Of a stretch of DNA of 64,000 nt, positions 7,640 to 64,000 are shown piece after piece. Position 1 is the first letter of the stretch. Each line of letters begins with the position of its first letter. Both the position numbers and the translations under genes were made by a program. The notes under the pieces are model-generated. The model ran no database searches and was not told the origin of the DNA. It saw only the letters and a program-made list of their open reading frames with translations. The DNA lies in contig DBQI01000065.1 of assembly GCA_002305165.1 (NCBI GenBank), forward strand, positions 16,794 to 80,793, read 5' to 3'. The stretch is from Armatimonadetes bacterium UBA1398. Lineage in GTDB: Bacteria; Armatimonadota; Zipacnadia; UBA1398.

Positions 7640-8452
7640 ATGGAGAGCTACCAGTTCATCCCTTCGGGCAGCGAGGAGATCCTCACGGCCTACCATGCCG
7701 CCGTCGACGGATCGCCGCCCGTCCGCTGCGCCGTTCTGGTGGCTCCTCTCCACGAGGAGAAGAAGGCCGCCCACCGTCCCCTGGTGGACCTGGCCCGCGC
7801 GCTCGCGAACAGAGGTTGCGCCTGCCTGCGGTTCGATCCACGGGGCACGGGCGACAGCCCCGGCGTGGCGGATGACCTCTGCTTCAGCACGCTCCGACAG
7901 GATCTGACGGTCGCCATCGACCAAGCCCGCACCCTCTCCGGTCTGGAGAAGGTCAGCCTTCTGGGGGTTAGGCTGGGCGCCGATCTCGTGGCACTCGAAG
8001 GGCTCGCGGGCACTGAGGTGGATCACACCCTACTGTGCGTGCCTCTCATCAGCGGCGAGCGCTACCTGCGGGAGGTACGGATACGCGGGAGGATTCGAGG
8101 CGCGATGACCACCGCGGAGGGCGGCGAGGAGGCCTCCGGCCGGTCGGCAGGGTTGGACTACGGTGGGCACTATGTCTCCCCCGAGCTGATCGCCGACCTG
8201 GAGGCCCACGATCTGATGGTTGACGAGTCCCCCCTAGCGGCGCGGGTCACCTGCATAGACATCCGAGGCAGGGATAGCATGACGGCCCCCCTGTCGGCCC
8301 TCGTTGCGAGGCTGCAGAGCCGAGGCGCCAGCGTCGATGCGCGGGTGGTGCTGGACGAGCCTTTCTGGAACGCACTGGGGCCCATCGTCCCTCGCGCGTT
8401 CATTCAGGCTGTGGTCGAGATCCTCACCGGTCGAGAGGACGAGGCCCGATGA
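7640..8452 (+). CDS. alpha/beta-fold hydrolase
   Basis: 270 aa; alpha/beta hydrolase-like layout; stop overlaps next start (ATGA at 8449..8452). Confidence 0.55.
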   Translation: MESYQFIPSGSEEILTAYHAAVDGSPPVRCAVLVAPLHEEKKAAHRPLVDLARALANRGCACLRFDPRGTGDSPGVADDLCFSTLRQDLTVAIDQARTLSGLEKVSLLGVRLGADLVALEGLAGTEVDHTLLCVPLISGERYLREVRIRGRIRGAMTTAEGGEEASGRSAGLDYGGHYVSPELIADLEAHDLMVDESPLAARVTCIDIRGRDSMTAPLSALVARLQSRGASVDARVVLDEPFWNALGPIVPRAFIQAVVEILTGREDEAR

Positions 8453-9297
8453 GCCTGTCGGAGCGCTTCATCGAGTTCGTCGGCGAGAGCGGCGGGGTGC
8501 TCCGCGGCATTCTGCACGAGCCTGTCGAGGCGAGGGACCTGCCACCTGTCATCATGTTCTCAGGCTGGGGCGGCACACGGTATGGGCCCAACCGAATACT
8601 GCTCGAGGCGGCGCGGGATCTGGCCACAGATGGTCGCGCGGTTCTCCGGGTCGACTTCCGAGGTCGGGGAGACTCCGACGGATTTGTGGACGAGCATGAC
8701 CTTCGGTCCCACATCATCGACGGCAGGACCATGGTCGCCTGGTCGCGACGGAACCTGGCGGATCGCCCGCCGGTGCTTCTGGGCATCTGCTCGGGGGGCG
8801 AGGTCGCGGTCGGCTGCATCTTCGACGGCTTGGATGTTGACTCAGTCTGCCTCTGGTCGGCGCCCGTCTTCGCGGCCCAGGCCACGACCGAGAGGGTCGC
8901 CACGAAGCGAGCCTCCTACCTCAGGGAGTACGGGCGGAAGCTCTTCCGAGGTGAGACCTGGCGGAAGCTCATCGCTGGCGAGGTGCGGTTCGATATCATC
9001 CGGCGGGTGCTCGGCAAGGCAGGTGTGCACGTGAAGTCCGAGGACGAGCCGGCGGAGTTGTCGGCGCAGTCGGACTTCCCCGCGCGATGCGAGGCCGCGC
9101 TGCTCATCTACGGCACAGCGGACCCGATCGCCGCAGAGGCGATCCAGGCGTACCAGGCTCTCTTCAGCCGCGCAGGATGTTCCACTGAACTCCGCCATAT
9201 CGAGGGTGCCAACCACGGGTTCTATGCCCTCGACTGGAAGCGTGAGGTGATCGAGAGCACCAGGGGCTGGCTGGCCGGTCGGGGTACCGCCTCATGA
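8449..9297 (+). CDS. alpha/beta-fold hydrolase
   Basis: 282 aa; nucleophile-elbow-like GICSGG and C-terminal GANHGF (catalytic His candidate); coupled to flanking genes by ATGA overlaps. Confidence 0.55.
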
Positions 9298-10397
9298 GGC
9301 GCATCCTCTTTGTCAGCCATGTGGGGGAGTTGGGGGGCGCGGAGCACTCCCTCGTTACGTTGGTCTCGTGCCTCGATCAGGGCCGCTACGACGCCCACGT
9401 TGCCCTGTCCACCATCGACTCCCCGTTGGGACGCGCGCTGTTAGAGCGGGGCGCTGAGACCCACGCCATCCCATCGCTGCGTCCGCTCCGCCGGCGCGAC
9501 CCGTTCATGCCGATCACCCTCATCCGAGGCCAGCGCGCGTTGTCCGCCCTGGCACGGAGGCTGAGGCCGGACGTCATTCACGCGAACAGCGACGTGTCGA
9601 TGGCGTACGCGGCCGGACTCTACACGGAATCAGGCTCGGGGCGAACCCCCTGGCGGATCGTCTGGCACCTTCGCGACATGCGAGGCGCGGGATACTGGGT
9701 CCGCCACCTTCGCGATCACTCTCACGCGCGCATCGCAGTGAGCCGAGCGGTGCTCGATCATCACGGCCTACACGCCTGCGAGCGGTCGCGAGTCATCTAT
9801 AACGGAGTCGACCTGTCACGCTTCCGACCGGGTCTATCGGGGGCGTCCATCCGACGCGAGCTGGCGATTGGCGCGGACCGTGTGCTGTGCCTCTGCGTGG
9901 CTCAGGCGGTCCCATGGAAGAACCTGGACACATTCGCCGGGCTCTCCGGTGAGGGGTACGAACGGCTGCTCATCGCCTATCCTCCCCCGGGAGGCAGGCC
10001 CATGGCCTGTCCCGCTTCTGGACCGGGGCTGCAAGTGGTCGGCTACCGCGACGATATGCCCGAGGTGTACGCGGCCGCGGACGTGCTCGTCCATCCGGCC
10101 ATCGGCGAGGCCTTCGGCCGCACGGTGGTCGAGGCCATGGCGTGCGGAGTGCCGGTGGTCGCCTACCGCCATGGAGGACCCGCGGAGACGATCGTGCATG
10201 GAGTGAGCGGCCTGCTCGTCGACCCGAAGGAACCGGAGGCCTTGGAGTGTGCCGTGGATCGTCTCGTGGCCGACGCTGACCTCCGGGGCCGCCTCGCTGT
10301 CGGTGCGGCCGAGCGGGCCCAGGCGTTTTCCTCCGAGAGTCACGCGGCCCAGGTGGAAGCGTTCTACGAGGATCTCATCGAGGGGGGAGCGGGGTGA
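9294..10397 (+). CDS. GT4 family glycosyltransferase (GT-B fold)
   Basis: C-terminal retaining-GT4 signature [25 protein letters not shown]; GTGA overlap with next gene. Confidence 0.8.
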
Positions 10398-11512
10398 GGG
10401 TCGGCATCGACTGCTCGGTCCTTCACGGACGCTTCTCCGGTGTGGAGAAGGCCGTCCGTGGGCTGATCGGAGGGCTGGCCGAGACCCAGGGCGAGCAGGA
10501 GCTGGTCCTCCTCTGTGGGCGCAAGCCGCCGCTCGATCTCCCGTTGCCATCGGGCATGGTGTGGCACTGCAGCGACTTCGACCCAGCCAACAGACTCCGC
10601 CGCATCGCCTTCCAACAGTGGGAGCTGCCCCGACTGGCCAAGCGCCTGGGCCTCGACGTGCTACACGGACCGGCCTATATAACGCCTGTTCACGCCCGCT
10701 TCCCGACTCTAGTGAGCGTGTACGACCTGATGGTCTTCCTCTATCCCGACCTCTGCGCACGAGCCAACCGTGTGCACTATCGCCTGGTCATGCCGCGCTG
10801 CGTGCCACGTTGCGAGCGGGTCCTCGTGCCTAGCGCCATCGTGGGGTCCTCGGTCGTGGAGACGCTCAGGGTGGATCCGGCTCGTGTCCGAGTGTCGCAC
10901 CTTGGCCTGGACCCCATCTTCGCGAGGTCCCCAGACGCGGAGGAGGTCGCCTCCCTCCGGGACCGACTGAACTTGCCCGAGCGGTTCCTCCTGTTCGTCG
11001 GCAATCTGGAGCCCAAGAAGGGCCTCGATGTCCTCGTCCGCGCGCTGGGTAGGCTCCGCGAGGGCCCGCCCCTCGTTATCGCGGGCAAGCGCGCTTGGGG
11101 CGTGGGCGGACTCGATGAGCTGATCGCCTCTGAGGGCATCCAAGACCGCGTTACGTTCACGGGGTACGTGCCCGATGAGGATCTCCCCGCCCTGTACGCG
11201 GCGGCCCGCTGGTTCGTGTTCCCCTCCATCTACGAAGGCTTCGGCCTGCCGCCCCTGGAGGCTATGGCATCTGGAACACCAGTGATCGCCTCCGATGGTG
11301 GCGCGCTCCCGGAGACCACCGGCGATGCCTGCGTCCGCGTCGAGGCGGGCAGCGTAGAGGAGCTCGCGGAGGCGATATCGGCTTCCTGGGGCGACGATGC
11401 CCTACGCGAGAGCCTGTCACGTGCCGGCGTCGTGCAGGCGAGCCGGTTCTCCTGGAGAAACCACGCTCTGGACGCGCGGCAGCTCTACGCGGAGGTGCGC
11501 CATGGACCCTAG
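10394..11512 (+). CDS. GT4 family glycosyltransferase
   Basis: GTG start overlapping previous stop; signature [22 protein letters not shown]. Confidence 0.8.
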
Positions 11513-12704
11513 CGCGCGGATCGCCTATGTGCTTGGCTCGTTCCCGAGCCCATCGGAGACGTTCATCCTGACAGAGATGTCTCTGCTGCGAGAGCGGGAC
11601 ATTGAGCCACTCGTCGTCGCACTCGAGCGTGGCCCCGATGTGGGCGACGACCGCGTCGCGGCTCTTGAGGCTGCGGCTCGCTACCGTCCCGCGCGATGGG
11701 TCTGCGTCCTGCAGAGCCTGCTCTACGGCATCGGCGGGGATGCCCGCGCCCGACTCCACGGCGCCGCAGCGGCGCGGTTCGCGGAGCAGCTGGCCCCTCT
11801 GACCCCGACGCATGTACACGCTCACTTCATGGGGGCGCCAACCCTCGTAGGCCACGCCATGGCCCGCATGATGGGGCTCAGCTTCACCTTCAGTTGCCAC
11901 GCCTCCGATGTCTTCACGGCCGGCGACCCCACTCCCGAGGAGCATGCGGCCGTCTATGACGCCCACGCAATCATCGCATGCTCCGAGTACCTCCGGAAGC
12001 ACCTCATCGAGCGCAGGGGGTACCCCCGCGAGAAGGTCATCACCATCCACCATGGCATCGATCTGAGTCGAGTGCCGGAGCGCGCGGCTCCGACCGATTC
12101 CACCGAGCCGGTCTTGGTGGCCGTAGGCCGACTGGTTCCCAAGAAGGGCTTCGATGTGCTGCTGCGCGCGGCCGCGCCGATGCTGAAACAGGATCGGATC
12201 GCCCTGCGGATCGCAGGGGAGGGCCCTGAAGGAACGCGGCTTAGAGCCCTTGCCGTCGATCTCGGCGTGTTGGACCGGGTGGAGTTCCTCGGCCGGCTCA
12301 CGTGGGAGGACACCCTGCGGACGATAGCCGAGTCCAGCGCACTCATCGCGCCCTCAGTGACGGCCGAGGACGGCGACATGGACGGGATCCCCAACGTCCT
12401 CCTGGAGGCTGGCGCGTTGGGAGTGCCGGTCATCGCGAGCCGGCTGTCCGGCATCCCCGAGCTCGTCGAGGACGGCAAGACCGGGCTGCTCACAGCCTCC
12501 GGGGATGAAGGGGCGCTTGGCAAGGCGCTCCGCCGCGTCGCGGACAGCGCGGACCTTCGGGCGCAGCTCGGAGGAGCCTCTCGCGAACGGATCCGCCGCG
12601 AGTGGAGCGCAGCCGACTCCGTAGGCCAGATCGCTGGCTTGTTCCGCGAGGCAGCGGCTCACACGACTGTGCCGGTCGAAGGCATCGAAGGGGCGCGTGC
12701 GTGA
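11502..12704 (+). CDS. GT4 family glycosyltransferase
   Basis: Start set at ATG 11502 (M36 of track ORF 11397..12704), 11-nt overlap with previous gene; signature GIPNVLLEAGALGVPVIASRLSGIPELV. Confidence 0.75.
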   Translation: MDPSARIAYVLGSFPSPSETFILTEMSLLRERDIEPLVVALERGPDVGDDRVAALEAAARYRPARWVCVLQSLLYGIGGDARARLHGAAAARFAEQLAPLTPTHVHAHFMGAPTLVGHAMARMMGLSFTFSCHASDVFTAGDPTPEEHAAVYDAHAIIACSEYLRKHLIERRGYPREKVITIHHGIDLSRVPERAAPTDSTEPVLVAVGRLVPKKGFDVLLRAAAPMLKQDRIALRIAGEGPEGTRLRALAVDLGVLDRVEFLGRLTWEDTLRTIAESSALIAPSVTAEDGDMDGIPNVLLEAGALGVPVIASRLSGIPELVEDGKTGLLTASGDEGALGKALRRVADSADLRAQLGGASRERIRREWSAADSVGQIAGLFREAAAHTTVPVEGIEGARA

Positions 12705-17177: not shown

Positions 17178-19298
17178 CTATGGGAGGCCGAGGTCACGCA
17201 GAGGCTTCAGCGCCGCCTCGGCCCGCTCGTCTTGCCCCAGCGAGCGGTAACACTCCGCCAAACGCAGTCGTTCTTCCTTCTCCGCGGGAGGAACACGGAA
17301 GGCGAACGCCTGCTCGAAAGCCTCGATGGCGCCTCGGGCGTCGCCCGCCTCGTAGAGGGCGTTCCCGAGGGCTTTGTTCAGAGGTCCCAGCACCGTGATG
17401 TCCCAGACGCGCCGCCGGTGTCGTTCGAGGAGCCGCGCTGCCGACTCGGGCTGGCCCAGCGCGCGGCGGATTCGCGACTCCTGGATCACAAGCCTGTCGT
17501 GATGCGGCGCGATCTCCCGACCGAGAGTGATGAGCCCGAAGGCCCCCCACGGATCGCCATAGAGGAGCCGCTCGTCGCTCAGTTCCAGCAGTGGCGCCAT
17601 CGCCATCTCGCGGACGCCACGGTCCGTTGGGTGCTCCGCCATGCACCACCGCGCCCAAGCGAGACACTCCCGGACCAGCGCCTCATATGTGGCGGGGTCC
17701 TCCTCGGCCAGATTCACGGGATGGGCGGTGACTTGGCTGACCCAGCCTCGTGTCTCAAGGTGCGCCCCGGCCGCCTCGTACCAACGCGCCCCCGCGGAGA
17801 ACACCCCGCCAGCCCGCACTGCCAGGCTAGCCAGGTGGCGCTCGCGCTCCAGGAAGACCTGCTGGAAGGACCCCTCGACCTCTTCCTGGCTGGCGCCCAT
17901 CCACTCCTGCACGTAGCGGTACGAGTTGTCATCCAGTTCGGGGGCGAGCCAGACCCGTTGCTCGGTGCTCTGCTCCACATTGCGGCAGTAGTAGAGCGGG
18001 AAGATCCGATGGTCGCCGACGACATGCTCATCACCGCAGATGAGATCCGTTGCGGGATTGCCTAACGCGGCGATAGCCCGGTCGGCGTAGTAAGCGGCCA
18101 TCCACTCGGTGCTCCGATCCACCTCCCTGTAAGTGCGCGGCGTCTCGGCGAGCAGCCAGGCCAGAAGGACTGACAGGATGATCGCCACCGCCTTCCTCCC
18201 CCGCTCCTGGGCATCACCGAGGAGGAAGGCGATCCCGTGCAGGCCGGCCCCCGCCAGCCCAACTATCCCGAGGTAGGCGGGGATGAAGAACACCTCCTGG
18301 TCCATCGCCGTGTAGTTCCAGAAGAAGCCGAGGGAGGCCACCGCTAGCCACGCGAAAGGCGCCAGGCGCGTCCCCGCCGGACGCCACCCCACGACGTACC
18401 CGCCGAGGGCAAGCGCCCAGACGGGAAGCGACAGCTCCGCTGCTAGGCGGTGCCAGTCTCCCCTGAGCATCGTCCCCCAGAGAGGCGGCTGGGCGCCCCA
18501 CATGAACCGGCGGTAGGGGCCTGCTGAGATGGTGAACTTGAAGTCAGCCCAGGTCTTCGGCTTCGCCCAGCAGTACGCGGCTCCCTGATCCAGGTGGGGC
18601 CACGCCCCAGCCCGCAGCGGGAGATGCAGCCATACCAACTGAGACAGCAGGTACCCGCCCACGAAGGCTCCCAGCACGCTCCATCTCAGCCATAGGCGTC
18701 GAGGCTGTCCGATGAACAACGGCAGCAGCCCCAGTTGAAGGAGCGCGTTGAAGGGCCGGTGGGTGACGGCGAGCCCCAGGAGCAGTCCCAGCCCCAGCGC
18801 CCACCACCAGCGCACCGCTTGGCCCGCTTCCAGCCCTCTCCGCATCCGCAGCGCCCCCGCCAGCCCTGCCGTCAGGAGGGCTATGTCGAGGGTGTACACC
18901 TCGGTCAGGGTGGCCTGGTCCCAGACTACAGGGGTCAGGCAGAAGGCCCACGTGAGGAGCAGGGCGGTGACGTCGTGGCGGACCAGCTCGCGTAGTGAGA
19001 TGAACAGGAATAGGCCCGCGAAGCCCAGCCAGATGGCTGAGAGCAGGTTGGCGCTCGCCGCCAGGGAGGCGAGGGGCACGACCTGGCTCCAGCCCCAGGT
19101 CAGGAGCACCCACAATGGGTAGCCGGGCGCATGGGCGATGCCTCGCTGCCCCACGGCGGACAGCAGTTCGCCCGCGTCCCCGAAGGTGATCGATGGCGCC
19201 ACGGTCCAGACCACTACTGCCAGCACACCGAGGGACGAGAGAGCGCCACATACCGGGCAGCTTACGGCGGCGAGGTTAGTGGTCAGGGGACGCTGCAT
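17178..19298 (-). CDS. DUF2723-like multi-pass membrane protein (putative GT-C/PMT-like glycosyltransferase) with C-terminal TPR-like repeats
   Basis: 706 aa; N-terminal about 400 aa of hydrophobic helices with FGDAGELL motif; soluble C-terminal helical repeat region. Confidence 0.55.
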   Translation of the reverse strand: MQRPLTTNLAAVSCPVCGALSSLGVLAVVVWTVAPSITFGDAGELLSAVGQRGIAHAPGYPLWVLLTWGWSQVVPLASLAASANLLSAIWLGFAGLFLFISLRELVRHDVTALLLTWAFCLTPVVWDQATLTEVYTLDIALLTAGLAGALRMRRGLEAGQAVRWWWALGLGLLLGLAVTHRPFNALLQLGLLPLFIGQPRRLWLRWSVLGAFVGGYLLSQLVWLHLPLRAGAWPHLDQGAAYCWAKPKTWADFKFTISAGPYRRFMWGAQPPLWGTMLRGDWHRLAAELSLPVWALALGGYVVGWRPAGTRLAPFAWLAVASLGFFWNYTAMDQEVFFIPAYLGIVGLAGAGLHGIAFLLGDAQERGRKAVAIILSVLLAWLLAETPRTYREVDRSTEWMAAYYADRAIAALGNPATDLICGDEHVVGDHRIFPLYYCRNVEQSTEQRVWLAPELDDNSYRYVQEWMGASQEEVEGSFQQVFLERERHLASLAVRAGGVFSAGARWYEAAGAHLETRGWVSQVTAHPVNLAEEDPATYEALVRECLAWARWCMAEHPTDRGVREMAMAPLLELSDERLLYGDPWGAFGLITLGREIAPHHDRLVIQESRIRRALGQPESAARLLERHRRRVWDITVLGPLNKALGNALYEAGDARGAIEAFEQAFAFRVPPAEKEERLRLAECYRSLGQDERAEAALKPLRDLGLP

Positions 19299-25893: not shown

Positions 25894-27252
25894 ATGATGC
25901 GCAACCGATGGGCAGCGACGGCTGTGGCGTTGCTGCTGCTGAGCACTGCGGCTCTGGCCGCGGCGACGCCGGATCTGGAGGGCTGGGTCGAGACCGATCG
26001 CGCCAGCTATCGAGTGGGCGAGCCGGTCCGCGTCGCTTTCTGCATCCGAAACAACGGCCCCGAGGATGTCGACCTTGTGGTCGCCGGTCCCGAGGCACAG
26101 CTCCGCGTAGGAGCTCTGGGCGTTCTGGAGACCCCGAGCCGCTCTGCGGACCGGCCGGAGGAGATCCTTATTCGCCGTGGCGAGACGACCGTCTACCGGT
26201 TCGACATCGACCCTTCGGACCTGGACATTCCCGCTGGTACTCATCAGATCGTCGGCGCCCTGCAGCCTCTGGTGGGCGCGCCTATCCAGGCTGTCGGCCA
26301 GTTCGTAGTCTGCCAGCTGCCTGACTACCTCAAGGTCGCCGACGTGCTCGCGGCTCCCCATGTGTGGGCCGACGGCGATGTCGTCGAGCTCCGCGGCGAG
26401 TACCGCGGCAACCGCGCCCGCCCCTTCCGCCCCCTCGACGGTGTCGAGGCGCCCTGGGCCACGGACTGGATCCTGGGCGACGAGACGGGCGAGATCTACA
26501 TCCACAACGCCCCCTCCAAGGAGCACTACAACGACTGGACCTGGCACATCGACGACCCGTATGTTGCCCCGAAGACCGACGTGGGGACCATTTCCTCGCC
26601 CGTGCTCCTCTACAACCCGCCCGAGGTGGGCGATAAGGCCGAGTTCCTCCACCCCGAATGGACCTACGGCAAGCGCGTCATCGTTCGCGGCCACGTCATC
26701 ACCCATGACAGCGGCCTCGTCACCGTCGCTCCGGTGGAGATCTTCAAGTGGCAGACAGACCGAGGCGCCTTCTGCGTGCTCGAGACCGAAGGACCGCCGC
26801 AGACCGAGGCGGGCCCCAGCCAGATGCTCCTGCGGATGATCGTCAAGAACGACACCGCGTTCCCACTCATCCTCGCCCACGCGAGCGGCTTCAGATACGA
26901 CTTCGTTGTCGAGCGCGACGGCGAGGAGGTGTGGCGCTGGTCCCGGCATCAGGGCATGTCCGAGGGGCTCTCCTGGATGACCGTGAGCGACGACTCGTGG
27001 AAGCCTGGCCCGAACTCACCACTCGTCGACCGCTCGGTGACCACTGTGACGCCCCATGAGGGGAACCGCGCCTCGGGCCGGAGCACCGTGCCACCCGACA
27101 ACGCCCTGGTCTACACCGCGTACTGGCCCCTGGTGGACAATGATGGCCGGCCCGTTGAGCCGGGCGTCTACCAGATCTCCGGCTTCATCAGCCACCGCGT
27201 GTTCACCTATCCCGTTCCTGTCGTCGTTGGGCATGCGGCTGCCCTGCCCTAG
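25894..27252 (+). CDS. secreted protein with BsuPI-like (intracellular proteinase inhibitor-like) beta-sandwich domain
   Basis: ATG with GGGGAGGG 7 nt upstream; signal peptide; C-terminal segment ASGFRYDFVVERDGEEVWRWSRHQG resembles BsuPI. Confidence 0.45.
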   Translation: MMRNRWAATAVALLLLSTAALAAATPDLEGWVETDRASYRVGEPVRVAFCIRNNGPEDVDLVVAGPEAQLRVGALGVLETPSRSADRPEEILIRRGETTVYRFDIDPSDLDIPAGTHQIVGALQPLVGAPIQAVGQFVVCQLPDYLKVADVLAAPHVWADGDVVELRGEYRGNRARPFRPLDGVEAPWATDWILGDETGEIYIHNAPSKEHYNDWTWHIDDPYVAPKTDVGTISSPVLLYNPPEVGDKAEFLHPEWTYGKRVIVRGHVITHDSGLVTVAPVEIFKWQTDRGAFCVLETEGPPQTEAGPSQMLLRMIVKNDTAFPLILAHASGFRYDFVVERDGEEVWRWSRHQGMSEGLSWMTVSDDSWKPGPNSPLVDRSVTTVTPHEGNRASGRSTVPPDNALVYTAYWPLVDNDGRPVEPGVYQISGFISHRVFTYPVPVVVGHAAALP

Positions 27253-27381
27253 CTGGTCGCGGCTCGAGGGGAGGATTCCCCACGGACCGATACAAGATGC
27301 CGATAGCGGGTGGACCCGTCCTCTGGCGCGGGTGCCGTCCTGGTTCGCTTCGTCTGGCGAAGACTTGGGGCGTCTGATCCA

Positions 27382-29253
27382 ATGAGTGAAGAGCGCGAAG
27401 TGCTCAAACGGGTAGCGGATGGGCGCAGCGACCCGGGCATCCTGGCCCGAGAGGCTGGCCGTGCGGACGAGGACTCCCTGTGCATCCGGGAGTTCGACGG
27501 AGACCGAGGCGCCCTCTATGCGGTCGCCGACGGGCTGAGCGGCAGGAACGCCGGCAGCGTCGCTAGCGCCCAGGCGGTTGGCCTGCTCGAGGAGGCTTTG
27601 GAGGCGTACGCCCGCCACGGCGAGGCGCTCCTCCAGCAGCTCGGTCCGGCCCTCCCCGACCTCAGGGCCTACATCGACTACGTCGCCGTGCGGATCGACG
27701 CCCAGTTGCGCGCCAACGCCGAGGCGAATCCCAGCCTGGCGGGGATGGCGACGAGCCTTACGGCGGCCTACGTGGATGGCCGGGACCTCCTCATCGCCCA
27801 TGTCGGCGACTCCCGCGCCTACCGCGCCCGCGCCACGGAGTCTGGGCTGCAGCAGCTCACCATCGACGATGCCCCCGTGGATGACGAGGAGTTCGATCCC
27901 CCTCCCTCCAAGGCCCTGGGCGACGCCGACGAGCAGCCACTGCGCATCGATCAGTACCGCGCGGAGGATGGAGACATCCTCCTGCTTTGCACTGACGGGC
28001 TGTGGCGCGAGGTCGACTGTGCGCTCATGGAACGCATCCTGAAGGGGTCCCCGCGCCCCTCGATGGCCGTCGAGAGGCTCATCCGCGCGGGGAACCAGGC
28101 TGGCGGACGTGGCAACATGGCCGCCGTCGTCGTTCACATCGGCGAGGTTGACCTGACCGACGACGAGGCCCTGGATTCGGCCTTCCCCGTCGGCGGCGCC
28201 GCCCCCAAGCAGGCTCCCGTGGAGCCCCCCGCAGAGACGCAACCAGAGCCCGAGCCCGAACCGCCGGTGGAGGAGCCTGCCGCCGAGGCCCCCGAGAACA
28301 CGCCCCCCCCGGAGGAGCCGGCCATTGAGGAGCCGGCCCCCGAGGCTACCGAGGAGGCCCCGAGGGAGGAGCCGGGACCGGTCATACCGGGTCCGCCAGC
28401 AGGTGGCTATGCGGCCGTCCCCGAGGTCGTGGGCCGGGCAACCTACCCGCGCCCCGCGGAGATACCCGACGACGCCCTGCGTCCCCGGCGCGAGACGGCG
28501 GCGGGCGAGGCTAGGTCCAGCGACTCGGCCCTGTTCCTCCTGGGGCTTGTGTCGGGCATCGCCTTCATGCTCGTCATCGGCGGCATTTTCTGGGGCCTTA
28601 AGGCGTGGGCCGGGAAGCCCACCGAAGCGCCGCGAGCCACTGCCACGAGCACCGATCACGTCGACTATGAGGAGATTGTGACCCATCCCGTCAGCTTCTG
28701 GGCCAAGCCTCTGGGGCCGGGGGGGCGGCCGTGCATGATCCTCACCAAGAGTCTCCACGAGGAGACGGGCGAGGAGTCGTGGGAGGAACTGCCTCGCCTT
28801 CAGGGCAATGAGAGCGGCCCATCGGGCTCTGTCAGCCTCTTCCGCCAGGGCGACGCGCTTCACATGTTCCTGGATGTGCAGTTCATCGCGTCCGAGGCCG
28901 GCCTGCCACGCGACTGCCTGCTCTCCCTCAAGGTCATGCCCGACGAGGGCAACCGGACCCAGACCGTCATCACCGCGGGCCCTGACGCCGGCGAGCAGCG
29001 GGACGGGCACATCGAGGTCATCAGCATCCGCCCCGGGAGCGTGAGCCTGGTACCACAGGATCCCGACGAGCGGCTGATCGCGGGCGGCAAGGCCGAGGCG
29101 ACGATGGGCGGCCAAGTCAACGCGTCGGGCTATTACGTGCAGCACTTCGACAAGGTGCCCTTGGGCACGTACCTCGCCAAGAAGGGCAGCAGCGAGCGGA
29201 TCGTCGAGATCACGGCCGCCAAGCGACGGGTGACAGTCACCTTCACCGAGTGA
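27382..29253 (+). CDS. membrane-anchored PP2C-family Ser/Thr protein phosphatase with extracytoplasmic C-terminal domain
   Basis: Start at ATG 27382 (internal to track ORF 27310..29253). PP2C motifs LYAVADGLSG, GMATSLTAAYV, AHVGDSRAY, LLLCTDGLW; Pro/Glu-rich linker; TM helix LFLLGLVSGIAFMLVIGGIFWGL. Confidence 0.75.
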   Translation: MSEEREVLKRVADGRSDPGILAREAGRADEDSLCIREFDGDRGALYAVADGLSGRNAGSVASAQAVGLLEEALEAYARHGEALLQQLGPALPDLRAYIDYVAVRIDAQLRANAEANPSLAGMATSLTAAYVDGRDLLIAHVGDSRAYRARATESGLQQLTIDDAPVDDEEFDPPPSKALGDADEQPLRIDQYRAEDGDILLLCTDGLWREVDCALMERILKGSPRPSMAVERLIRAGNQAGGRGNMAAVVVHIGEVDLTDDEALDSAFPVGGAAPKQAPVEPPAETQPEPEPEPPVEEPAAEAPENTPPPEEPAIEEPAPEATEEAPREEPGPVIPGPPAGGYAAVPEVVGRATYPRPAEIPDDALRPRRETAAGEARSSDSALFLLGLVSGIAFMLVIGGIFWGLKAWAGKPTEAPRATATSTDHVDYEEIVTHPVSFWAKPLGPGGRPCMILTKSLHEETGEESWEELPRLQGNESGPSGSVSLFRQGDALHMFLDVQFIASEAGLPRDCLLSLKVMPDEGNRTQTVITAGPDAGEQRDGHIEVISIRPGSVSLVPQDPDERLIAGGKAEATMGGQVNASGYYVQHFDKVPLGTYLAKKGSSERIVEITAAKRRVTVTFTE

Positions 29254-57192: not shown

Positions 57193-58296
57193 TCACGATG
57201 GACCGTCGTGGATCAACACGGCCTTGCTGACTTCGCGCGCCGCGACGGCCTCCAAGGCCTCGTTCGCCTCCTCGAACCGGAAGCGGCCGTCCACCAAGCG
57301 CTCGAACGTCTCGGGCTGGCCCTCCACGAGCCGCACGGCTTCCAGGAGATGGCGCATATCGCTCACCCAGATGCCCTGCAGCCGAACGTTTCGCCGCGCG
57401 ATGTCGTGGAAGAAGTCGATCTCCAGCCCCCCTCGCGGTTCCGCCACGCCGCAGGACACGTAGGCGCCCCCGGTCCGAAGCCACTTCAAGCCCTCGGCGA
57501 TGGCGGCCTGGTCGCCGGCGGCCTCGTAGACCGCGTCGGCGCCCTCGCCCCCGGTAAGCTCTAGGATCTCTTCCAGCCGCTCCGCCACCGTAGTCTCGCG
57601 GCGATTGATGGTGTGGGTCGCTCCCAGCTCCTCACACAGCCGCAGCCGGCTCGCCGTGCCGCCCACCACGATGATCGTCTCAGCGCCCGAGGCCTTCGCG
57701 AAAGCGGCGCAGTAGGCCCCGATCGGCCCCGGGCCCTGGATGACCACCCGCGAGCCGAAGCCCGGCCGCACCTCCTCGAAGCAATGGGCGGCCGTCGCAC
57801 CCGAGCACCCGGCAGTGACGGCGACCACGGGTGAGAGGTCATCATCCAGGCAGAGGGTCTGTACGTTGCGGGCGAGGAGCACATGGCTGGAGTAGCATCC
57901 CACCAGGTGCGGTGGGTCCTGGCACGAGCGGGTGATCCCATAGACCCAGCGGTGAGGGCAGAGGGCGGGCTGACGGAGCACGACGCACGTGCGGCACGCC
58001 ATGCAACTCACCCCTCGGTTGAAGGCGATGCGGTCGCCCTCGGCGAGCTTGGCGCCCTGGACGTCACGCGCCTCTCCACCCGTCGCGACCACCCGGCCGA
58101 CGCCCTCATGGCCGGGGATGAGCGGCAGCGGCACCCGCGGGTCCAACCCTTGCCACTGATGCACATCGGAGCCGCACACGCCGGAAACCTCGAGGCGCAG
58201 GAGCACCTCCCCGGGGCCGGGATCCGGCAGTGGGTAGCGCCGATCGTGCAGGGCCTCGCCGAACTTGGTCAACACATGGGCATAGGCTTCGCTCAA
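57193..58296 (-). CDS. zinc-dependent alcohol dehydrogenase (MDR superfamily)
   Basis: Catalytic Zn motif GVCGSDVH, structural-Zn Cys cluster (CMACRTCV...C), Rossmann VIQGPGPIG; TTG start overlapping upstream stop (TTGA). Confidence 0.8.
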   Translation of the reverse strand: MSEAYAHVLTKFGEALHDRRYPLPDPGPGEVLLRLEVSGVCGSDVHQWQGLDPRVPLPLIPGHEGVGRVVATGGEARDVQGAKLAEGDRIAFNRGVSCMACRTCVVLRQPALCPHRWVYGITRSCQDPPHLVGCYSSHVLLARNVQTLCLDDDLSPVVAVTAGCSGATAAHCFEEVRPGFGSRVVIQGPGPIGAYCAAFAKASGAETIIVVGGTASRLRLCEELGATHTINRRETTVAERLEEILELTGGEGADAVYEAAGDQAAIAEGLKWLRTGGAYVSCGVAEPRGGLEIDFFHDIARRNVRLQGIWVSDMRHLLEAVRLVEGQPETFERLVDGRFRFEEANEALEAVAAREVSKAVLIHDGPS

Positions 58297-59546
58297 GACC
58301 GATCACCCGTTCCCTCCAGCGGCGCGAGCCGTCCGAGGCTGTCCCTCCTCCAGGCTCTTCGCCCCAGTACTGTCATCCACGGCTTGAGCAGCACCGGCAC
58401 GCCCAGGTAGGGGCAGTTGGAGGAGCGCGAGTGGATCCACTCAGGCCGAACCGTGGTCTCGCCGAACTCGAAGAGCGCCAACCGCGCCTCCGCCCCCACC
58501 TCGATCTTCGGCCCCTCCGCGCCCAGGACGGACCACGGGCCATCGGTCCACAGTTCCACCGCCCGCAGCCACGCGTCGGGGTCCGCGGCCTTGTCCCAGA
58601 GGGCCTTGTGGGAGACGCTCATCATGCAGCCCATCCCGAGCATCCCGGGCGGGGCTTGGTCGAAGGGCCTCGACTTCTCGGAGTCGGTGTGGGGCGCGTG
58701 GTCGCTCACCAGAGCATCGACCTCGCCGTCGATGGCGTGTTGGAGCAGAGCCTCCGTGTCCCGGCGCGTCTTCAGCCTGGGCGCGACCTTGCCTTGGGCG
58801 CCCAGCCGCTCGATGTCGTCTTCGGTCAGCAGCAGGTGATGGGGGCAGATCTCCCAGGTGATGGGCGCCCCGTCCTCCCGCGCATCGAGGATGATCCCCG
58901 CGCCCTCCGCCGTGCTCACATGGGAGATGTGGACGCGAGCGCCCGTCGCCGCCGCCAAGCGGCAGGCCCGCTCCACGGCGATGGGCTCATTGGGCAGCCC
59001 GTCGGGACCCGGCAGCTCGAAGTGGCCCGCGAAGGTGATCCCGACCTCGGCGCACTGAGCGAGGCACTCCCGCAGGAGCCCCTCGTCGCTGATGGTGAAG
59101 CCGTCGTCGGAGATCATCGCCGCGCCGGCGTCGCGTAGGGCCCGGTAGTCGGAGAGCTGGCTGCTCCCCCTGCCCTTCACCGCCGCCGCCACGGGCATGA
59201 CCTTCACGCCCCGGCCCACCTCCGTGGCGCGGCGGATGATGTGATCGATGGTGGCGGGCTCGAAGGCCAGGGGCTCCGTGTTCGGCATGCAGCAGAGGGC
59301 GCCGACGCCGCCCGCGATAGCGTCCCGGCAGCCTGTCTCGATGTCCTCCTTGTGCTCCTGCCCCGGCTCGCGGAGATGGACGTGGAGATCCAGCAGGGCG
59401 GGGGTGATCCACTTACCGGTGCAGTCCACCACGCGGTCGCCCGGCTGGGGCGCGTGGCGGCCGATGCTCGCGATGACCCCATCCTCGATGACGATGGTCC
59501 GATCCATGCCCGCGGACAGAGGCTCGTGCAGAACCAGTCGGCTCAC
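58293..59546 (-). CDS. pyrC: dihydroorotase-like cyclic amidohydrolase
   Basis: Metal-binding DLHVHLREPG plus downstream His/Asp positions (HISHVS, DHAPH); GTG start with GGGGGGA RBS. Confidence 0.7.
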   Translation of the reverse strand: MSRLVLHEPLSAGMDRTIVIEDGVIASIGRHAPQPGDRVVDCTGKWITPALLDLHVHLREPGQEHKEDIETGCRDAIAGGVGALCCMPNTEPLAFEPATIDHIIRRATEVGRGVKVMPVAAAVKGRGSSQLSDYRALRDAGAAMISDDGFTISDEGLLRECLAQCAEVGITFAGHFELPGPDGLPNEPIAVERACRLAAATGARVHISHVSTAEGAGIILDAREDGAPITWEICPHHLLLTEDDIERLGAQGKVAPRLKTRRDTEALLQHAIDGEVDALVSDHAPHTDSEKSRPFDQAPPGMLGMGCMMSVSHKALWDKAADPDAWLRAVELWTDGPWSVLGAEGPKIEVGAEARLALFEFGETTVRPEWIHSRSSNCPYLGVPVLLKPWMTVLGRRAWRRDSLGRLAPLEGTGDRS

Positions 59547-59817
59547 CGATCATCCCCCCGATACAGCGGCGCGCGGGAGGTCACTGCGAGCCCCCCTGAA
59601 AAGACGAAGCGCCTGACTCGTCGGCCGAGCGGGCGCGTGGTGGCGTGTTGGGGCACAACCTGCCGAGCATCATTTCAACCCTTCGCGACGCTCCTCCCGA
59701 ACCCTTCCCATTCCGCACTGTATCCGGTACCCTCTCATGGGCTTGGGGCCACGCGCTGTGGGCCGCGAGAGCCCGATTCCCGGCGCCCCCAGGGGGGCGT
59801 TCCGAGAGGAGCGCGCC

Positions 59818-60810
59818 ATGCGTCCGGAGCGGATTGAGCAGCTCATCCACTTCTACAGGGACATGTTGCGTATCCGGTACTTCGAGGAGAAGATCCTCAA
59901 CCACATGCTCCCGAACCGGCTCTTCCGTGGCTCATCGCACCTGTGCATCGGCCAGGAGGCCGTGTCGGTGGGCGCGGTTCACGCGATGGAGGAGGAGGAC
60001 TACCTCTTCACCACCCATCGCAACCACGGCCACACTCTTGCCCGGGGCATGGACCTGGAGGGGGCCTTCGCGGAGATCATGGGCCGGACCACGGGCGTGT
60101 GCCGCGGCAGGGGCGGCAGCATGCACCTCGCCGACGCCAGCCTTGGGATACTGGGCGCCAACCCGGTCGTCGGCTCCAACATCCCCATGGCCACGGGGGC
60201 CGCGCTGGCCCTCAAGATGCAGGGCCGCAAGGGCATCGTCGTCTGCTTCTTCGGCGAGGGCGCCATGAACACCGGGGCATGCCACGAGGCCTTCAACATG
60301 GCCGCCCTCTGGGATCTGCCCGTCGTCTTCGTCTGCGAGAACAACAAGTACGCCATCTCCGTGGCCGAGGACATCTCCATGTCCGACCACGAGCTCCAGG
60401 ACCGCGCCGTGGGATACGGCATGGAGAGCTACCGCCTGGATGGCATGAACGTCCTGGAGGTCTACGACTTCTGCTCGGCGACCTTCGGCAGGACCCGGCG
60501 CACGAGCCGGCCCGCCCTCCTCGTCTTCGACACCTACCGCTTCGTGGGCCACCACACCTCGGACAGCGAGCGGTACCGGCCCAAGGACGAAGCCATCGAG
60601 GTCTTCCGCGAGAAGGACCCCATCCACTTCGTGGAGCGCGAGTTCCTCGAGGACTGCCACGTCGACCCCGAGCAGGCAGTGGACATCCGAATCGACATCA
60701 AGCAGGAAGTGGAGTCGGCCTTCGAGCGCGCCTTGGAGGCGCCCTGGCCCGACCCCGCGACCTTGACCCAGGGCCTGTGGGCCGAGTCGGAGGTGACCTG
60801 CGGTGACTGA
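59818..60810 (+). CDS. TPP-dependent 2-oxoacid dehydrogenase E1 component, alpha subunit
   Basis: Start at ATG 59818 (M28 of track ORF 59737..60810); TPP-binding motif GEGAMNTGACHEAFN and HNHGH-type region. Confidence 0.75.
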   Translation: MRPERIEQLIHFYRDMLRIRYFEEKILNHMLPNRLFRGSSHLCIGQEAVSVGAVHAMEEEDYLFTTHRNHGHTLARGMDLEGAFAEIMGRTTGVCRGRGGSMHLADASLGILGANPVVGSNIPMATGAALALKMQGRKGIVVCFFGEGAMNTGACHEAFNMAALWDLPVVFVCENNKYAISVAEDISMSDHELQDRAVGYGMESYRLDGMNVLEVYDFCSATFGRTRRTSRPALLVFDTYRFVGHHTSDSERYRPKDEAIEVFREKDPIHFVEREFLEDCHVDPEQAVDIRIDIKQEVESAFERALEAPWPDPATLTQGLWAESEVTCGD

Positions 60811-61789
60811 TCGCGGGCGAGAGGTGGTCTTCGCGCAAGCCATTCGCACGGCCCTCCGGGAGGAGATGCAGCGCGACGAGTCCGTCATCCTATGGGGCCA
60901 GGACATCGGCGTCTACGGTGGCGTCTACGGCGCTACAACGGGCCTCCAGCGGGAGTTCGGCGAGGACCGCGTGCGGGACGCCCCCATCTCGGAGATGGCC
61001 ATCGCCGGCGTCGCCGTCGGGGCGGCGCTCCTCGGGATGAGGCCGGTCGTCGAGATCATGTACGCCGACTTCCTCATGCACGCCGCCGACGCCATCGCGA
61101 ACCAGGCGGCGAAGTGGCGCTTCATGAGCGGCGGGCAGTTCAAGGTGCCCGCGGTCTTCCGCTCGCCCGCTGGCGGCGGCTCCGGCTACGCGGCCCAGCA
61201 CTCCCAGAATATCGAGTCGTGGTTCTGCCACATCCCGGGGCTGAAGGTCGTCTGCCCCTGCATGCCCCGCGACGCTCGAGGCCTGCTCAAGAGCGCCATC
61301 CGCGACGACAACCCCGTCGTCTTCCTCGAGCACAAGAGCCACTACACCTACCGCGGGCCCATGCCCAAAGAGGAGGAGCTCCTGCCCCTCGGCAAGGCCG
61401 ACGTGAAGCGCGAGGGCACGGACGTCACCTTGGTCTCCTGGTCCCGCAACCTCCTCTGGGCACTGGAGGCGGCTGACAAGCTCCGGGAGGAGGGGGTCAG
61501 CATCGAGGTCATCGACCCCATGACGCTCTTCCCCCTGGACCTAGACACGATCCTCGAGTCCCTCGCCAAGACCGGCCGGCTGGTCGTCTCGCACGAGGCC
61601 CACGCCTTCTGCGGCGTCGGGGCCGAGATCATCGCCCAGGTGGTCGAGGGCCACATGGACCTCCTGAAGGCGGCGCCCAAGCGGGTGTCCGCTGTGGCAT
61701 GTCCCCTGCCCTACTCCGAGCCCCTGGAGAAGGCCGCCCTGCCCGACGCCGATGACATCGCCGCGGCGGTCCGGCAGGTGGTTCGGTAG
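60803..61789 (+). CDS. 2-oxoacid dehydrogenase E1 component, beta subunit
   Basis: GTG overlapping alpha-subunit stop by 8 nt; transketolase-like pyrimidine-binding and C-terminal domains (ISEMAIAGVAVGAALLGMRPVVE). Confidence 0.75.
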   Translation: MTDRGREVVFAQAIRTALREEMQRDESVILWGQDIGVYGGVYGATTGLQREFGEDRVRDAPISEMAIAGVAVGAALLGMRPVVEIMYADFLMHAADAIANQAAKWRFMSGGQFKVPAVFRSPAGGGSGYAAQHSQNIESWFCHIPGLKVVCPCMPRDARGLLKSAIRDDNPVVFLEHKSHYTYRGPMPKEEELLPLGKADVKREGTDVTLVSWSRNLLWALEAADKLREEGVSIEVIDPMTLFPLDLDTILESLAKTGRLVVSHEAHAFCGVGAEIIAQVVEGHMDLLKAAPKRVSAVACPLPYSEPLEKAALPDADDIAAAVRQVVR

Positions 61790-61794: not shown

Positions 61795-61825
61795 GCCGGC
61801 CCCCGAGCCCTCCTCGGGGGCCGGC
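61795..61825. terminator. 13-bp GC stem hairpin between convergent genes (candidate bidirectional terminator)
   Basis: GCCGGCCCCCGAG - CCCTC - CTCGGGGGCCGGC, 5 nt after the E1 beta stop and 10 nt before the stop of the minus gene at 61835. Confidence 0.45.
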
Positions 61826-61834: not shown

Positions 61835-62749
61835 TTACTCGGAGCGGCCGTTGCGGCGCAGGTGGCGCAGCCACACCAGGCCCGCGACCAGTAGCAGCCC
61901 CACCGCGGGGATGCCAAGCGTCGATGCCCACCGTGCCCAGCCGCCACCCGCCGCGCCGGCCGGCCGCAGGGAGGTTGTGATGCCCTCGCTGACAACCTCG
62001 CCCGAGACGGCGTCCACGCACACCACTGCCGTCCCCGGCGCTATCACGCCCTCCTGGCTTGCGGATGGCGAGGCCAGGCGCAGCACGTAATCGAACCGGT
62101 CGTACCACTGCACGAGGGGGCAGTCATCGGGCGAGGCGAGGACCAGCGTCTCGTCCTCTAGATGCTCGCGCGCCGTGGCAAGGGCTTGCTCCAGCGTCAC
62201 CACGGGCTGCCGGGGCGAGGCCCCCTCCGGCGGACACGTGGTCCCCCATGTTGTGATCGCCCCGTCTTGACGCACGGTGGCCAGCACATCGGGCGTCAGG
62301 CCCTTGCGCGGCGGGTCGCCGACCAGCCGACCGGTGCCCGCAACCTGACCGTGCCCGGACTCGAAGGGTCTCCGCCACTCCCAGGTGTCGATGCCTGCGG
62401 CCATGTCACCCAGCACTCGTTGGGTGAGCTCCTTCACGGATTCCAGCGCCTGCTCCTCGGTGACCCTGGTCTGCCGCTCTGGAGCATACAGGTCGACCGC
62501 ACTCACGAGGATCCACCGATCCGCGTTCACGCTGTAGGATCGTTGGGGCTCATCGAGGCTGAACCGAACGGCGGTGAACACTCCCGAGGCATCCCACTTC
62601 ACCTTGGCGTCGCTCACATCCACGCCTGTAGCCTCAAACACAACGTCGATCGCTCGAGCTAGATCGGTATCCCTGGCGTCACCGGGGTCGGCGACGGCGG
62701 CGCCGTAGGCGACCCCCACGAGAACGGCGATCATCACCCGCAGTAGCAT
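61835..62749 (-). CDS. PepSY-like secreted protein with C-terminal TM anchor and basic tail (paralogue 1)
   Basis: Signal peptide MLLRVMIAVLVGVAYGAAVA; PepSY-like VTLEQALATAREHL...VVCVDAVSGEVVSEG; C-terminus GIPAVGLLLVAGLVWLRHLRRNGRSE; GAGGAAAGGGG RBS. Confidence 0.5.
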   Translation of the reverse strand: MLLRVMIAVLVGVAYGAAVADPGDARDTDLARAIDVVFEATGVDVSDAKVKWDASGVFTAVRFSLDEPQRSYSVNADRWILVSAVDLYAPERQTRVTEEQALESVKELTQRVLGDMAAGIDTWEWRRPFESGHGQVAGTGRLVGDPPRKGLTPDVLATVRQDGAITTWGTTCPPEGASPRQPVVTLEQALATAREHLEDETLVLASPDDCPLVQWYDRFDYVLRLASPSASQEGVIAPGTAVVCVDAVSGEVVSEGITTSLRPAGAAGGGWARWASTLGIPAVGLLLVAGLVWLRHLRRNGRSE

Positions 62750-62854
62750 GGTGGCACAACCCCTTTCCTCATCTTACGACACGCGGCGAGACGGGATGCC
62801 GCGGCCCGGCAACGCTTGCGCAGCTTTCGGGCCGGGCGCCTCTCCTTAGGCCGC

Positions 62855-63715
62855 TCAGTTCAGCCTCCGCCTCAGCAGGAAGAGGCCGAAGGCGATGGCG
62901 CACAACAGGACGATCCCGCCGTAGAGCGCCCACGGCGGGGAGGTGGTGGCGGGCTCAGCGGCCGCGACGGGCGGCGACGGGGGGGAAGCGGAGCCGGTGG
63001 GCTCCTGCGGGAGTGAGGCCTTCGATACACTCATCACCTCACCCGTGGAGGCGTTGATGCGGACCAAGTAGCGGTCTCCCACCTTGTCACGCAGTTCGAT
63101 GGACCATCTCGCAGCATCGCGGACCTGGCTGAGCGATGGCTCACCCACTACCGCAGCGGCTTCGTCTCCCACGGCGTTCTGAGCAGCGGCAATGGCTTCC
63201 TCGCGACTCACCTCGACCGGCATGGGCGGTGACGGCGCTGGCTCGTCTATGGTGAACGACGTCACCCTGCCTTCGGTACTGCTCACCCGGGCCAGAACGG
63301 AGTGTGACAGCCCCGATCGAGGGGGGGTGCCACGCTTCGGGCCCTCGCCACGGATGACTATGGCGTCACCCGCTCGACCAACCACCGTCCAAGCTAGGTC
63401 GTCCGCCGCAACGGGAACATGGCGACGAGCCTCCTCGCTAACCAGCGCGATGGCCTCGTCCTCATTGCAGGGGCGAGGATCGCCGCTGACGGGCGGGATC
63501 TCGCTCCACCCTAGAAAGGCGCCGGTGGCTAGGTCAACCCGGTACTGGCGTGTGCCGCCGGTGTAGATCCCGATGCGCCGGCCGCCGTCCAGCTCCACCT
63601 CAGGGAGCGGCGCCAGAGAGCCGCCAGCGTGTTCCTCAGCGATCAGCCGGGCCTCTTCGATGGTGACCGGCCCAGCCGGCAGAGCAAGGCTCAAAGCGAG
63701 CAGCAGTGCGAGCAT
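62855..63715 (-). CDS. PepSY-like secreted protein with C-terminal TM anchor and basic tail (paralogue 2)
   Basis: Start at internal ATG (GGAGAGGAG RBS) giving signal peptide MLALLLALSLALPAGP; two PepSY-like units (VTIEEARLIAEEH..., VSREEAIAAAQNA...LVRINASTGEVMSV); C-terminus PPWALYGGIVLLCAIAFGLFLLRRRLN. Confidence 0.55.
   Translation of the reverse strand: MLALLLALSLALPAGPVTIEEARLIAEEHAGGSLAPLPEVELDGGRRIGIYTGGTRQYRVDLATGAFLGWSEIPPVSGDPRPCNEDEAIALVSEEARRHVPVAADDLAWTVVGRAGDAIVIRGEGPKRGTPPRSGLSHSVLARVSSTEGRVTSFTIDEPAPSPPMPVEVSREEAIAAAQNAVGDEAAAVVGEPSLSQVRDAARWSIELRDKVGDRYLVRINASTGEVMSVSKASLPQEPTGSASPPSPPVAAAEPATTSPPWALYGGIVLLCAIAFGLFLLRRRLN
62861..62961. repeat. 101-nt segment about 95% identical to 63748..63848 (3' ends of PepSY paralogues 2 and 3)
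   Basis: Direct comparison shows about 5 mismatches in 101 nt; encodes the shared C-terminal anchor. Confidence 0.75.
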
Positions 63716-63741
63716 CCCGGGTTCTCCTCTCCGGCTCGGAG

Positions 63742-64000
63742 CTACGTCAGCCTCCGCCTCAGCAGGAAGAGGCCGAGGGCGATGGCGCACAGCAAGACGA
63801 TCCCGCCGTAGAGCGCCCACGGCGCGGAGGTGGAGGCGGGCTCGGCGGTTGGACTGGCGGACGGGGCCAGAGGAGGCGCGAGACTGGCCGGAGAGACGCA
63901 CACGAGGGCCCCCGTCACGGCATCGATGTCGTACTCGGAGTACCGACAGGCCGCCTCAGAGAACAGGGCGAGCGTCCATATCGGCCGCCCTCGGTGGCGC
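63742..64000 (-). CDS. PepSY-like paralogue 3, partial (5' end beyond window end)
   Basis: Hand translation of open minus-strand frame to stop TAG (63742..63744): ...TAEPASTSAPWALYGGIVLLCAIALGLFLLRRRLT; absent from ORF track because the start lies outside the window. Confidence 0.45.
   Translation of the reverse strand, partial: RHRGRPIWTLALFSEAACRYSEYDIDAVTGALVCVSPASLAPPLAPSASPTAEPASTSAPWALYGGIVLLCAIALGLFLLRRRLT
63748..63848. repeat. second copy of the 101-nt PepSY C-terminal repeat
   Basis: See 62861..62961. Confidence 0.75.

Follow-up and report, generated by a model that had tools for sequence, protein, structure and literature searches.

A near-identical C-terminal anchor in a tandem array of PepSY proteins from uncultured Armatimonadota: probable recombination confined to gene ends

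Why should neighbouring genes be almost identical at their ends when the rest of their sequences has little in common? This question is raised by a stretch of 64,000 nucleotides from Armatimonadetes bacterium UBA1398 (assembly GCA_002305165.1, contig DBQI01000065.1, positions 16,794 to 80,793 of the forward strand), which is referred to below as the window. Three consecutive minus-strand genes at the end of the window, here called A (61835-62749), B (62855-63715) and C (from 63742 to the window end at 64000, which cuts the gene), encode signal-peptide proteins with PepSY-like units, and B and C close with nearly the same C-terminal tail. An earlier note on this sequence had described a tandem triplication and had left the tail to be explained either by gene conversion or by selection on a sorting signal of the sortase or exosortase type. 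Our reading, to which we give a probability of about 0.75, is that the tail is an ordinary stop-transfer anchor and that its near-identity stems from recombination confined to the gene ends; a new protein-sorting signal it most likely is not.

Homogenised gene ends on divergent bodies

A repeat search of the window returned the tail modules of B (62860-62961) and C (63747-63848), both on the minus strand, as a direct repeat of 102 nt with 94% identity, in agreement with the approximately 100 nt and 95% reported earlier for 62861-62961 and 63748-63848. Both copies encode PWALYGGIVLLCAIA(F/L)GLFLLRRRL, the complete module of B being translated as (A)EPATTSPPWALYGGIVLLCAIAFGLFLLRRRLN, and no copy beyond these two was found in any frame of the window. 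Outside the tail B and C are only 24% identical in amino acids and 40-50% in nucleotides, which bears out the statement that the rest of the genes has diverged, and the identity then steps to 93-96% across the last 35-40 codons. Such a likeness of the two tails cannot be due to chance.

Several JGI metagenome contigs encode a protein identical to B, and one of them, L008, reaches beyond the end of the window. It carries five tandem paralogues: g1 (290 aa), g2 (306 aa; this is gene D, the next array gene past the window end), g3, which is the complete gene C (283 aa, L008 9123-9974), g4, which is B, and g5, which is A. The three consecutive genes of the proposed triplication are indeed present, but the array holds five, of which the window genes are the distal ones, and the proteins would be type I membrane proteins. 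The conserved tail occurs on three of the five paralogues (g2, g3 and g4); g1 lacks it, and gene A has the same overall build as B and C with an unrelated tail. Among g2, g3 and g4 the bodies are 24-31% identical in amino acids and 40-50% in nucleotides, and the last 35-40 codons 87-100%. With bodies so far apart the paralogues are old and only their ends young, so that this is not a recent triplication; the wording "recently duplicated genes" of the earlier note does not fit bodies that have diverged so far.

Codon usage at shared residues was compared at aligned positions occupied by the same amino acid (Met and Trp excluded) in pairs with less than 50% body identity. The same codon was used at 647 of 712 tail positions (91%) but at only 771 of 1797 body positions (43%), the share expected for the tail residues from the family's own codon usage being 42%. 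Single pairs follow this trend: B and C have 22 of 24 codons identical in the tail and 21 of 49 in the body, B and D have 23 of 25 and 26 of 64, respectively, and Fisher tests of tail versus body for the pairs B-C, B-D and C-D gave p values from 4e-5 to 9e-8. Even the rare AGG, which makes up 11% of Arg codons, occurs twice in the RRR of every tail copy. Since synonymous codons are homogenised in the tail only, selection on the peptide is ruled out as the explanation of the codon identity.

The tails are also mosaic (prefixes such as L013 denote further array loci). The tail of L013_g3 has the 5' half only, with the same codons for YGGI.LLCA, and then continues into a different sequence with CGT CGT CGC, and in L013_g2 and L014_g2 only the last 39-47 nt are shared. 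Each half is thus replaced in some copy, and therefore both halves are dispensable. Discordant histories of gene segments are seen in the near-orthologues L013_g4 and L012_g2, which agree at 98% of synonymous sites in the body and at 88% in the tail. Strains with approximately 99.3% identity across 14.5 kb differ at 5 sites in gene C, 4 of them within 15 nt of the tail, and at 9 sites in the next upstream gene, 4 of them within 30 nt of the leader; with only 4-9 differing sites per gene, the ratio of nonsynonymous to synonymous substitution rates (dN/dS) of these strains is not informative.

Breakpoints of homology between loci lie at the boundaries of the same module. L013 and L014 are 99.9% identical over 6.2 kb, up to a point about 104 nt short of the g3 stop codon, where the homology ends; past this breakpoint the two carry different downstream genes. 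The homology of L014 and L012 begins 47 nt before the stop codon of g2. At one locus the copy number is one or three, depending on the assembly.

A second homogenised module is found at the gene starts. It includes the leader (signal peptide) of B (63671-63715, minus strand; MLALLLALSLALPAG), which is common to other B-type paralogues: B and L013_g4 have 84-89% nucleotide identity in the first 25 codons and 30-50% thereafter, and the MRSHSCIACSALVVFLLACGASVAD leader was found heading otherwise unrelated bodies. The MRSHSC-type leader is preceded by a non-coding stretch of about 330 nt, in which L008 7872-8198 and L012 9728-10054 agree at 95%; the two copies lie at different loci and head different gene bodies, and a weaker copy (77-80%) precedes g1 at L008 6630-6921. 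This stretch gave no Rfam match and no sigma-70-like promoter match; it is probably a common promoter or 5' untranslated region module that recombines as well.

Taken as a whole, the identity profile is a sharp step, the synonymous homogenisation is limited to a bounded segment, and mosaic tracts, discordant segment phylogeny and clustered strain substitutions are all observed, so that gene conversion of the tails, as the earlier note had suspected, is strongly supported by the sequence comparisons. We propose that repeated gene conversion together with unequal homologous recombination at the gene ends would homogenise the anchor module of about 100 nt, as well as the leader and its upstream sequence in several paralogues. 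The short end modules would then be the crossover points at which the composition and copy number of the array are altered, and the ectodomains would stay divergent while the ends are exchanged.

Short derivatives of approximately 200 aa (P0003/P0004 type) were noted at L022 7141-7935 and L025 2-715. In these, a B-like N-terminal half is joined directly to the tail (...IDEPAPSSPLKAAESATVLYGGIVLLCAIALG...) and the third PepSY unit is deleted, an arrangement which suggests recombination inside the Pro/Ser/Ala linkers.

Sorting signal, anchor or nucleic-acid element

The distribution of the tail was investigated by an exhaustive phmmer search (filter-only) with the 40-aa tail against 1.84 billion representatives. 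It gave 10 matches, of which the six strongest are members of the family or fragments of them and the other four are unrelated repeat proteins, with 4-6 stretches each at 33-47% identity. At the DNA level, 241 million metagenome records were scanned for YGGIVLLCA in all possible codon versions, which gave 17 loci, where all in-frame tail matches belong to the PepSY family and the rest are chance. Unrelated cargo proteins bearing the tail were absent from both collections, and other proteins ending in PWALYGG...LLRRRL, for which the earlier note had proposed to look, were not found outside the PepSY family. In genome contigs of species representatives a PWALYGGI-encoding pattern had 7 matches, all by chance and in unrelated taxa.

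No NCBIfam sorting-domain model reached its cut-off, whether the complete proteins or the tails alone were scanned. Among exosortase-type models the best match to the tail is GVDTG_CTERM with 21.7 bits (cut-off 29), PVV_CTERM scored 17.6 (cut-off 27) and PFE_CTERM 17.9 (cut-off 24), the last one on the tail of A; the PEP-CTERM model did not match, and GlyGly-CTERM gave no match even at E<=10. LPXTG_anchor came to 15.5 bits against a cut-off of 15.9 with a match that opens at model position 8, past the motif, and LAVTG to 16.8-18.1 against 27. A Pfam search of essentially all credible open reading frames (ORFs) of the 64 kb window revealed ordinary metabolic and envelope genes and no sortase, exosortase, rhomboid or CPBP gene. 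Across at least three genomic contexts no neighbour gene is conserved among the arrays; a single array has an Rce1-like gene at a distance of 5 kb.

P0005 was the closest relative outside the lineage, with 45% identity to B over residues 1-249; in place of the conserved tail it has hydrophobic sequence unrelated to it, and then RRRRR. A profile search with the ectodomains alone retrieved no relatives past the same lineage and P0005. Within the lineage, then, bodies are 25-30% and tails about 90% identical, and across lineages bodies are 45% identical and tails have nothing in common. This contrast argues against a long-lived recognition motif, for which the reverse pattern is expected.

One would argue that the tail is nevertheless a new dedicated C-terminal sorting signal, in which PWxxYGG, the transmembrane (TM) helix and the basic cluster are cleaved by a sortase-, exosortase- or rhombosortase-like enzyme and are conserved by selection for recognition. 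Indeed, the tail has three parts, lies at the extreme C-terminus and follows a low-complexity linker; YGG with a TM helix and RRR after it recalls GlyGly-CTERM, and there is the weak, sub-threshold likeness to GVDTG_CTERM and LPXTG_anchor. However, no curated model passed, the LPXTG match begins only after the motif, the tail is carried by one protein family, either of its halves can be swapped for unrelated sequence, its synonymous sites are homogenised in a way that peptide selection does not explain, and the outgroup orthologue P0005 has a generic tail. The window without any gene for the processing enzymes sought and the arrays without a common neighbour also stand against it. We therefore consider a sorting signal very unlikely, and a dedicated sorting system would be conceivable, with the same very low probability, only if its enzyme were encoded elsewhere in the genome. 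Purifying selection acting alone on a specific TM sequence, for oligomerisation of the paralogues or for docking to a common membrane partner, is unlikely too, even though most copies keep the small residues and the Cys of GG...C..A..G unchanged and YpeB protomers dimerise partly via their TM helix (bioRxiv 10.64898/2026.06.01.729290). Such selection predicts saturated synonymous sites with approximately 42% identical codons, and 91% was observed; neither the clustering of strain differences nor the mosaic tails nor the crossovers at module boundaries would follow from it, and gene A, L013_g2, L013_g3 and P0005 use other helices. Codon-diverged copies of the tail peptide in other lineages were not found, which weakens this explanation further. 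A sequence-specific TM interaction may add constraint alongside conversion.

It could also be supposed that the repeat is a nucleic-acid element lying over the gene ends (an RNA hairpin or stability element, a terminator, or an insertion similar to a repetitive extragenic palindrome or a miniature inverted-repeat transposable element), for a local hairpin GCCUCUUCCUGCUGAGGCGGAGGC is possible in the RRR codons, or that it is an assembly artefact. We consider both extremely unlikely. The RNA-element reading was rejected on the fold z-scores of only -1.7 and -1.0 and the lack of an Rfam match. Moreover, the identity stops at the stop codon, terminal inverted repeats and target duplications are missing, the reading frame is kept in every copy, and copies of the 100-nt unit outside coding sequence or in another frame were found neither in the window nor in the metagenome scan. 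The artefact reading was rejected because identical arrays are present in independent assemblies, the arrangement recurring in at least seven of them. As a separate observation, the codons of GLFLLRRRL (GGC CTC TTC CTG CTG AGG CGG AGG CTG; 62861-62890 and 63748-63777) can form a small hairpin via the rare AGG codons, which is not significant when compared with shuffled sequences.

Several considerations weigh against an ordinary anchor homogenised by recombination. In L013_g3, whose tail is partly divergent, PW..YGG and the Cys in the middle of the helix are retained, and constraint at the protein level may act; this retention is not independent evidence for constraint, because L013_g3 uses the same codons. 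The data come from one species-level lineage, and the long-term behaviour of the tail rests on the single outgroup protein P0005. The search for a processing enzyme covered the 64 kb window and the neighbourhoods of the arrays. Finally, the sharp end of the homogenised tract at the linker is attributed by us to the lack of homology between the bodies, which is the probable rather than the observed cause.

A bolder form of the recombination explanation can be envisaged, although we hold it to be rather unlikely: the anchor, and the leader together with the sequence upstream of it, would be portable recombination handles which shuffle, expand and contract a hypervariable repertoire of membrane-tethered triple-PepSY proteins, each ectodomain clasping a different extracytoplasmic hydrolase. 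By analogy with arrays of orphan immunity genes, the ectodomains would in that case serve, for example, in the periplasm as inhibitors of foreign peptidoglycan hydrolases or peptidases or as immunity proteins against them, and the conserved ends would be maintained because they enable the exchange of cassettes, and not only because exchange happens there.

With recombination at the gene ends as the preferred explanation, the locus teaches that a C-terminal tail with a convincing tripartite look can arise by concerted evolution of an ordinary anchor. A comparison of tail and body for their codon identity at shared residues is a cheap means to separate the two cases and could be used before sorting signals are proposed from genome scans. 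The array is also a clean bacterial example of recombination confined to gene ends of about 100 nt.

Fold, topology and related systems

The assignment of B to the PepSY proteins is supported both by the sequence and by the modelled fold. Pfam PF03413 (PepSY) matches residues 169-229 of B with 33.4 bits (cut-off 24), and units 1 and 2 were not detected by the Pfam sequence search; the match in A stays below the cut-off at 15.8 bits. A BLASTP comparison aligned A with B at E 2e-6 over the region PPR-GL...V(T/S)xE(Q/E)A. An AlphaFold2 model of B, built from an alignment of 18 sequences (mean predicted local distance difference test, pLDDT, 82.5), has a hydrophobic N-terminal leader, an ectodomain (63017-63661) of three PepSY-like units (residues 19-72, 85-157 and 171-233), a disordered Pro/Ser/Ala-rich linker (residues 235-260, 62936-63013, pLDDT <50) and a C-terminal helix (residues 262-285, 62861-62932), in which the TM helix and the basic cytoplasmic end are predicted. 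Each unit has one helix and then four strands, and most of the ectodomain has a pLDDT above 90. The PepSY-like units claimed earlier are therefore confirmed for B and are sub-threshold in A, and the linker, hydrophobic helix and basic tail are visible in the model as they had been described.

Foldseek against the PDB placed B next to the C-terminal domain of Bacillus megaterium YpeB (5boi, E 6e-9), followed by the vibriolysin propeptide (3nqz, E 1.6e-4), the lipoprotein CD1622 (4exr) and YpmB (2gu3). No PepSY_TM match (PF03929 type) was obtained at E<=1, and the model contains a single C-terminal helix only. B is not a member of the YpeB family, as its anchor is C-terminal, its N-terminus is a signal peptide, the helical bundle is missing and the NCBIfam scan returned no YpeB model. 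We are dealing with an unannotated, lineage-specific family, encoded in tandem arrays, whose members join three PepSY domains to an N-terminal signal peptide and a C-terminal anchor. By the positive-inside rule, the likely topology is one with the signal peptide directing the chain out, the ectodomain on the extracytoplasmic side and RRRL inside, and we infer that the C-terminus is not processed.

In a related observation, the leader of g2 (L008 8145-8220), which is also present in L013_g1, g5 and L012_g1, reads MRSHSCIACSALVVFLLAC|G with a lipobox-like LLAC inside. Paralogues with this leader might carry a lipid at the N-terminus in addition to their C-terminal anchor.

What these proteins do can be approached through their relatives. 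The three PepSY domains of YpeB embrace the lytic enzyme SleB and keep it inactive, and a role in chaperoning and inhibition is ascribed to the PepSY domain of M4 propeptides (bioRxiv 10.64898/2026.06.01.729290). The Bacillus YpeB of 5boi shares with the array proteins the three tandem PepSY domains, the extracytoplasmic face and the single TM helix. YpeB, however, begins with its TM helix, continues with a helical bundle, is single-copy and is encoded together with sleB, whereas the array proteins have a C-terminal anchor, a cleavable-looking signal peptide, many divergent paralogues and approximately 15% sequence identity to it; no SleB-like neighbour of the array was found, the neighbours being unrelated metabolic genes. 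The propeptides of M4 peptidases (vibriolysin MCP-02, 3nqz) have the PepSY fold as an intramolecular chaperone and inhibitor, whereas the array proteins are free-standing and membrane-tethered and have neither a peptidase domain nor an FTP domain. By these analogies the protein would work most like YpeB or like a free-standing, membrane-tethered PepSY propeptide, and its ectodomain would probably clasp and hold extracytoplasmic hydrolases. Should the ectodomains be diversified hydrolase inhibitors, the array would be of wider interest.

The tail itself resembles the signals of the LPXTG/sortase, PEP-CTERM/exosortase and GlyGly-CTERM/rhombosortase systems and of the newer NCBIfam *-CTERM families in its low-complexity linker, short conserved stretch, hydrophobic helix and C-terminal basic cluster. 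It differs from them in that it has no defining motif, occurs on a single cargo family and is conserved in a mosaic manner at the nucleotide level.

A closer parallel for the evolution of the array is offered by BabA, BabB and BabC of Helicobacter pylori, which have near-identical N- and C-terminal regions and a divergent middle, and in which intragenomic gene conversion leads to chimeric genes and changed locus content (PMC4552749). Pattern and mechanism match those that we propose here. In contrast, the Bab proteins are outer-membrane beta-barrel adhesins of a host-adapted pathogen, encoded at dispersed loci and with conserved ends of hundreds of bp, and the PepSY proteins are single-pass, anchored in the inner membrane and encoded in tandem in an environmental (bioreactor) Armatimonadota, with modules of about 100 nt. 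Phase-variation repeats were not seen in the PepSY array. The tandem M-like genes emm, mrp and enn of Streptococcus pyogenes likewise have signal-peptide and anchor ends in common, divergent surface parts and a history shaped by recombination; their anchors are genuine LPXTG sortase substrates, and organism and fold differ from those of the PepSY array.

Layout of the array and other features of the window

All array genes of the window are read from the minus strand. Gene A encodes 304 aa, in which a signal peptide is followed by a PepSY-like ectodomain and by a divergent TM anchor of its own (...GIPAVGLLLVAGLVWLRHLRRNGRSE; 61838-61954), which has no nucleotide similarity to the tail of B and C. 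Gene B encodes 286 aa and, of gene C, the 3' part with the conserved tail lies in the window. The spacer between C and B (63716-63741) is 26 nt long and contains the ribosome-binding site GGAGAGGAG, and that between B and A (62750-62854) is 105 nt long. These short spacers suggest co-transcription, and no terminator-like sites were found between these genes in L008. The start of gene B was set to the ATG at 63715 because the ribosome-binding site is present just upstream and the N-termini of homologues agree; a 348-aa ORF from a GTG (62855-63901) was rejected as a first-start artefact that overlaps the tail of C out of frame.

Between the convergent gene A and a gene for the E1-beta subunit of a pyruvate/2-oxoacid dehydrogenase lies a GC-rich hairpin (61795-61825) with a perfect 13-bp stem and a 5-nt loop (GCCGGCCCCCGAG-CCCTC-CTCGGGGGCCGGC), lacking a U-tract. 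It is probably the transcript end of the array.

The unannotated PepSY family sits in an uncultured Armatimonadota lineage, and array copy number varies between assemblies. The contigs matching the array include bioreactor metagenome assemblies, and the sequence of gene A is identical in four independent assemblies.

The first array gene of L008, g1 (6874-7746, 290 aa), misses linker and anchor and ends in ...GRRGDRRP, whereas L012_g1, which is 88% identical to it in nucleotides, continues into the conserved tail at the point where g1 stops. A terminator-like hairpin follows g1 at 7784-7802. This gene may be a secreted or a decaying copy. The GC content at third codon positions is 0.77-0.83 in the array genes (61835-64000) against 0.87-0.93 in the adjacent metabolic genes (57196-61786), which fits weaker codon adaptation or different expression of the array.

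Elsewhere in the window, an FHA/YscD-like membrane protein adjoins a PP2C-like protein (4835-7272), and a second large PP2C protein is encoded at 27310-29250; this set has the look of a module for Ser/Thr phospho-signalling. Three GT4 glycosyltransferase genes in a row and a TMEM260-like/TPR membrane glycosyltransferase (9294-12701 and 17181-19298) form an envelope glycan locus. A protein of 452 aa (25894-27249) has a BsuPI (proteinase inhibitor) domain and one hydrophobic segment, and is possibly another envelope protease regulator of the region.

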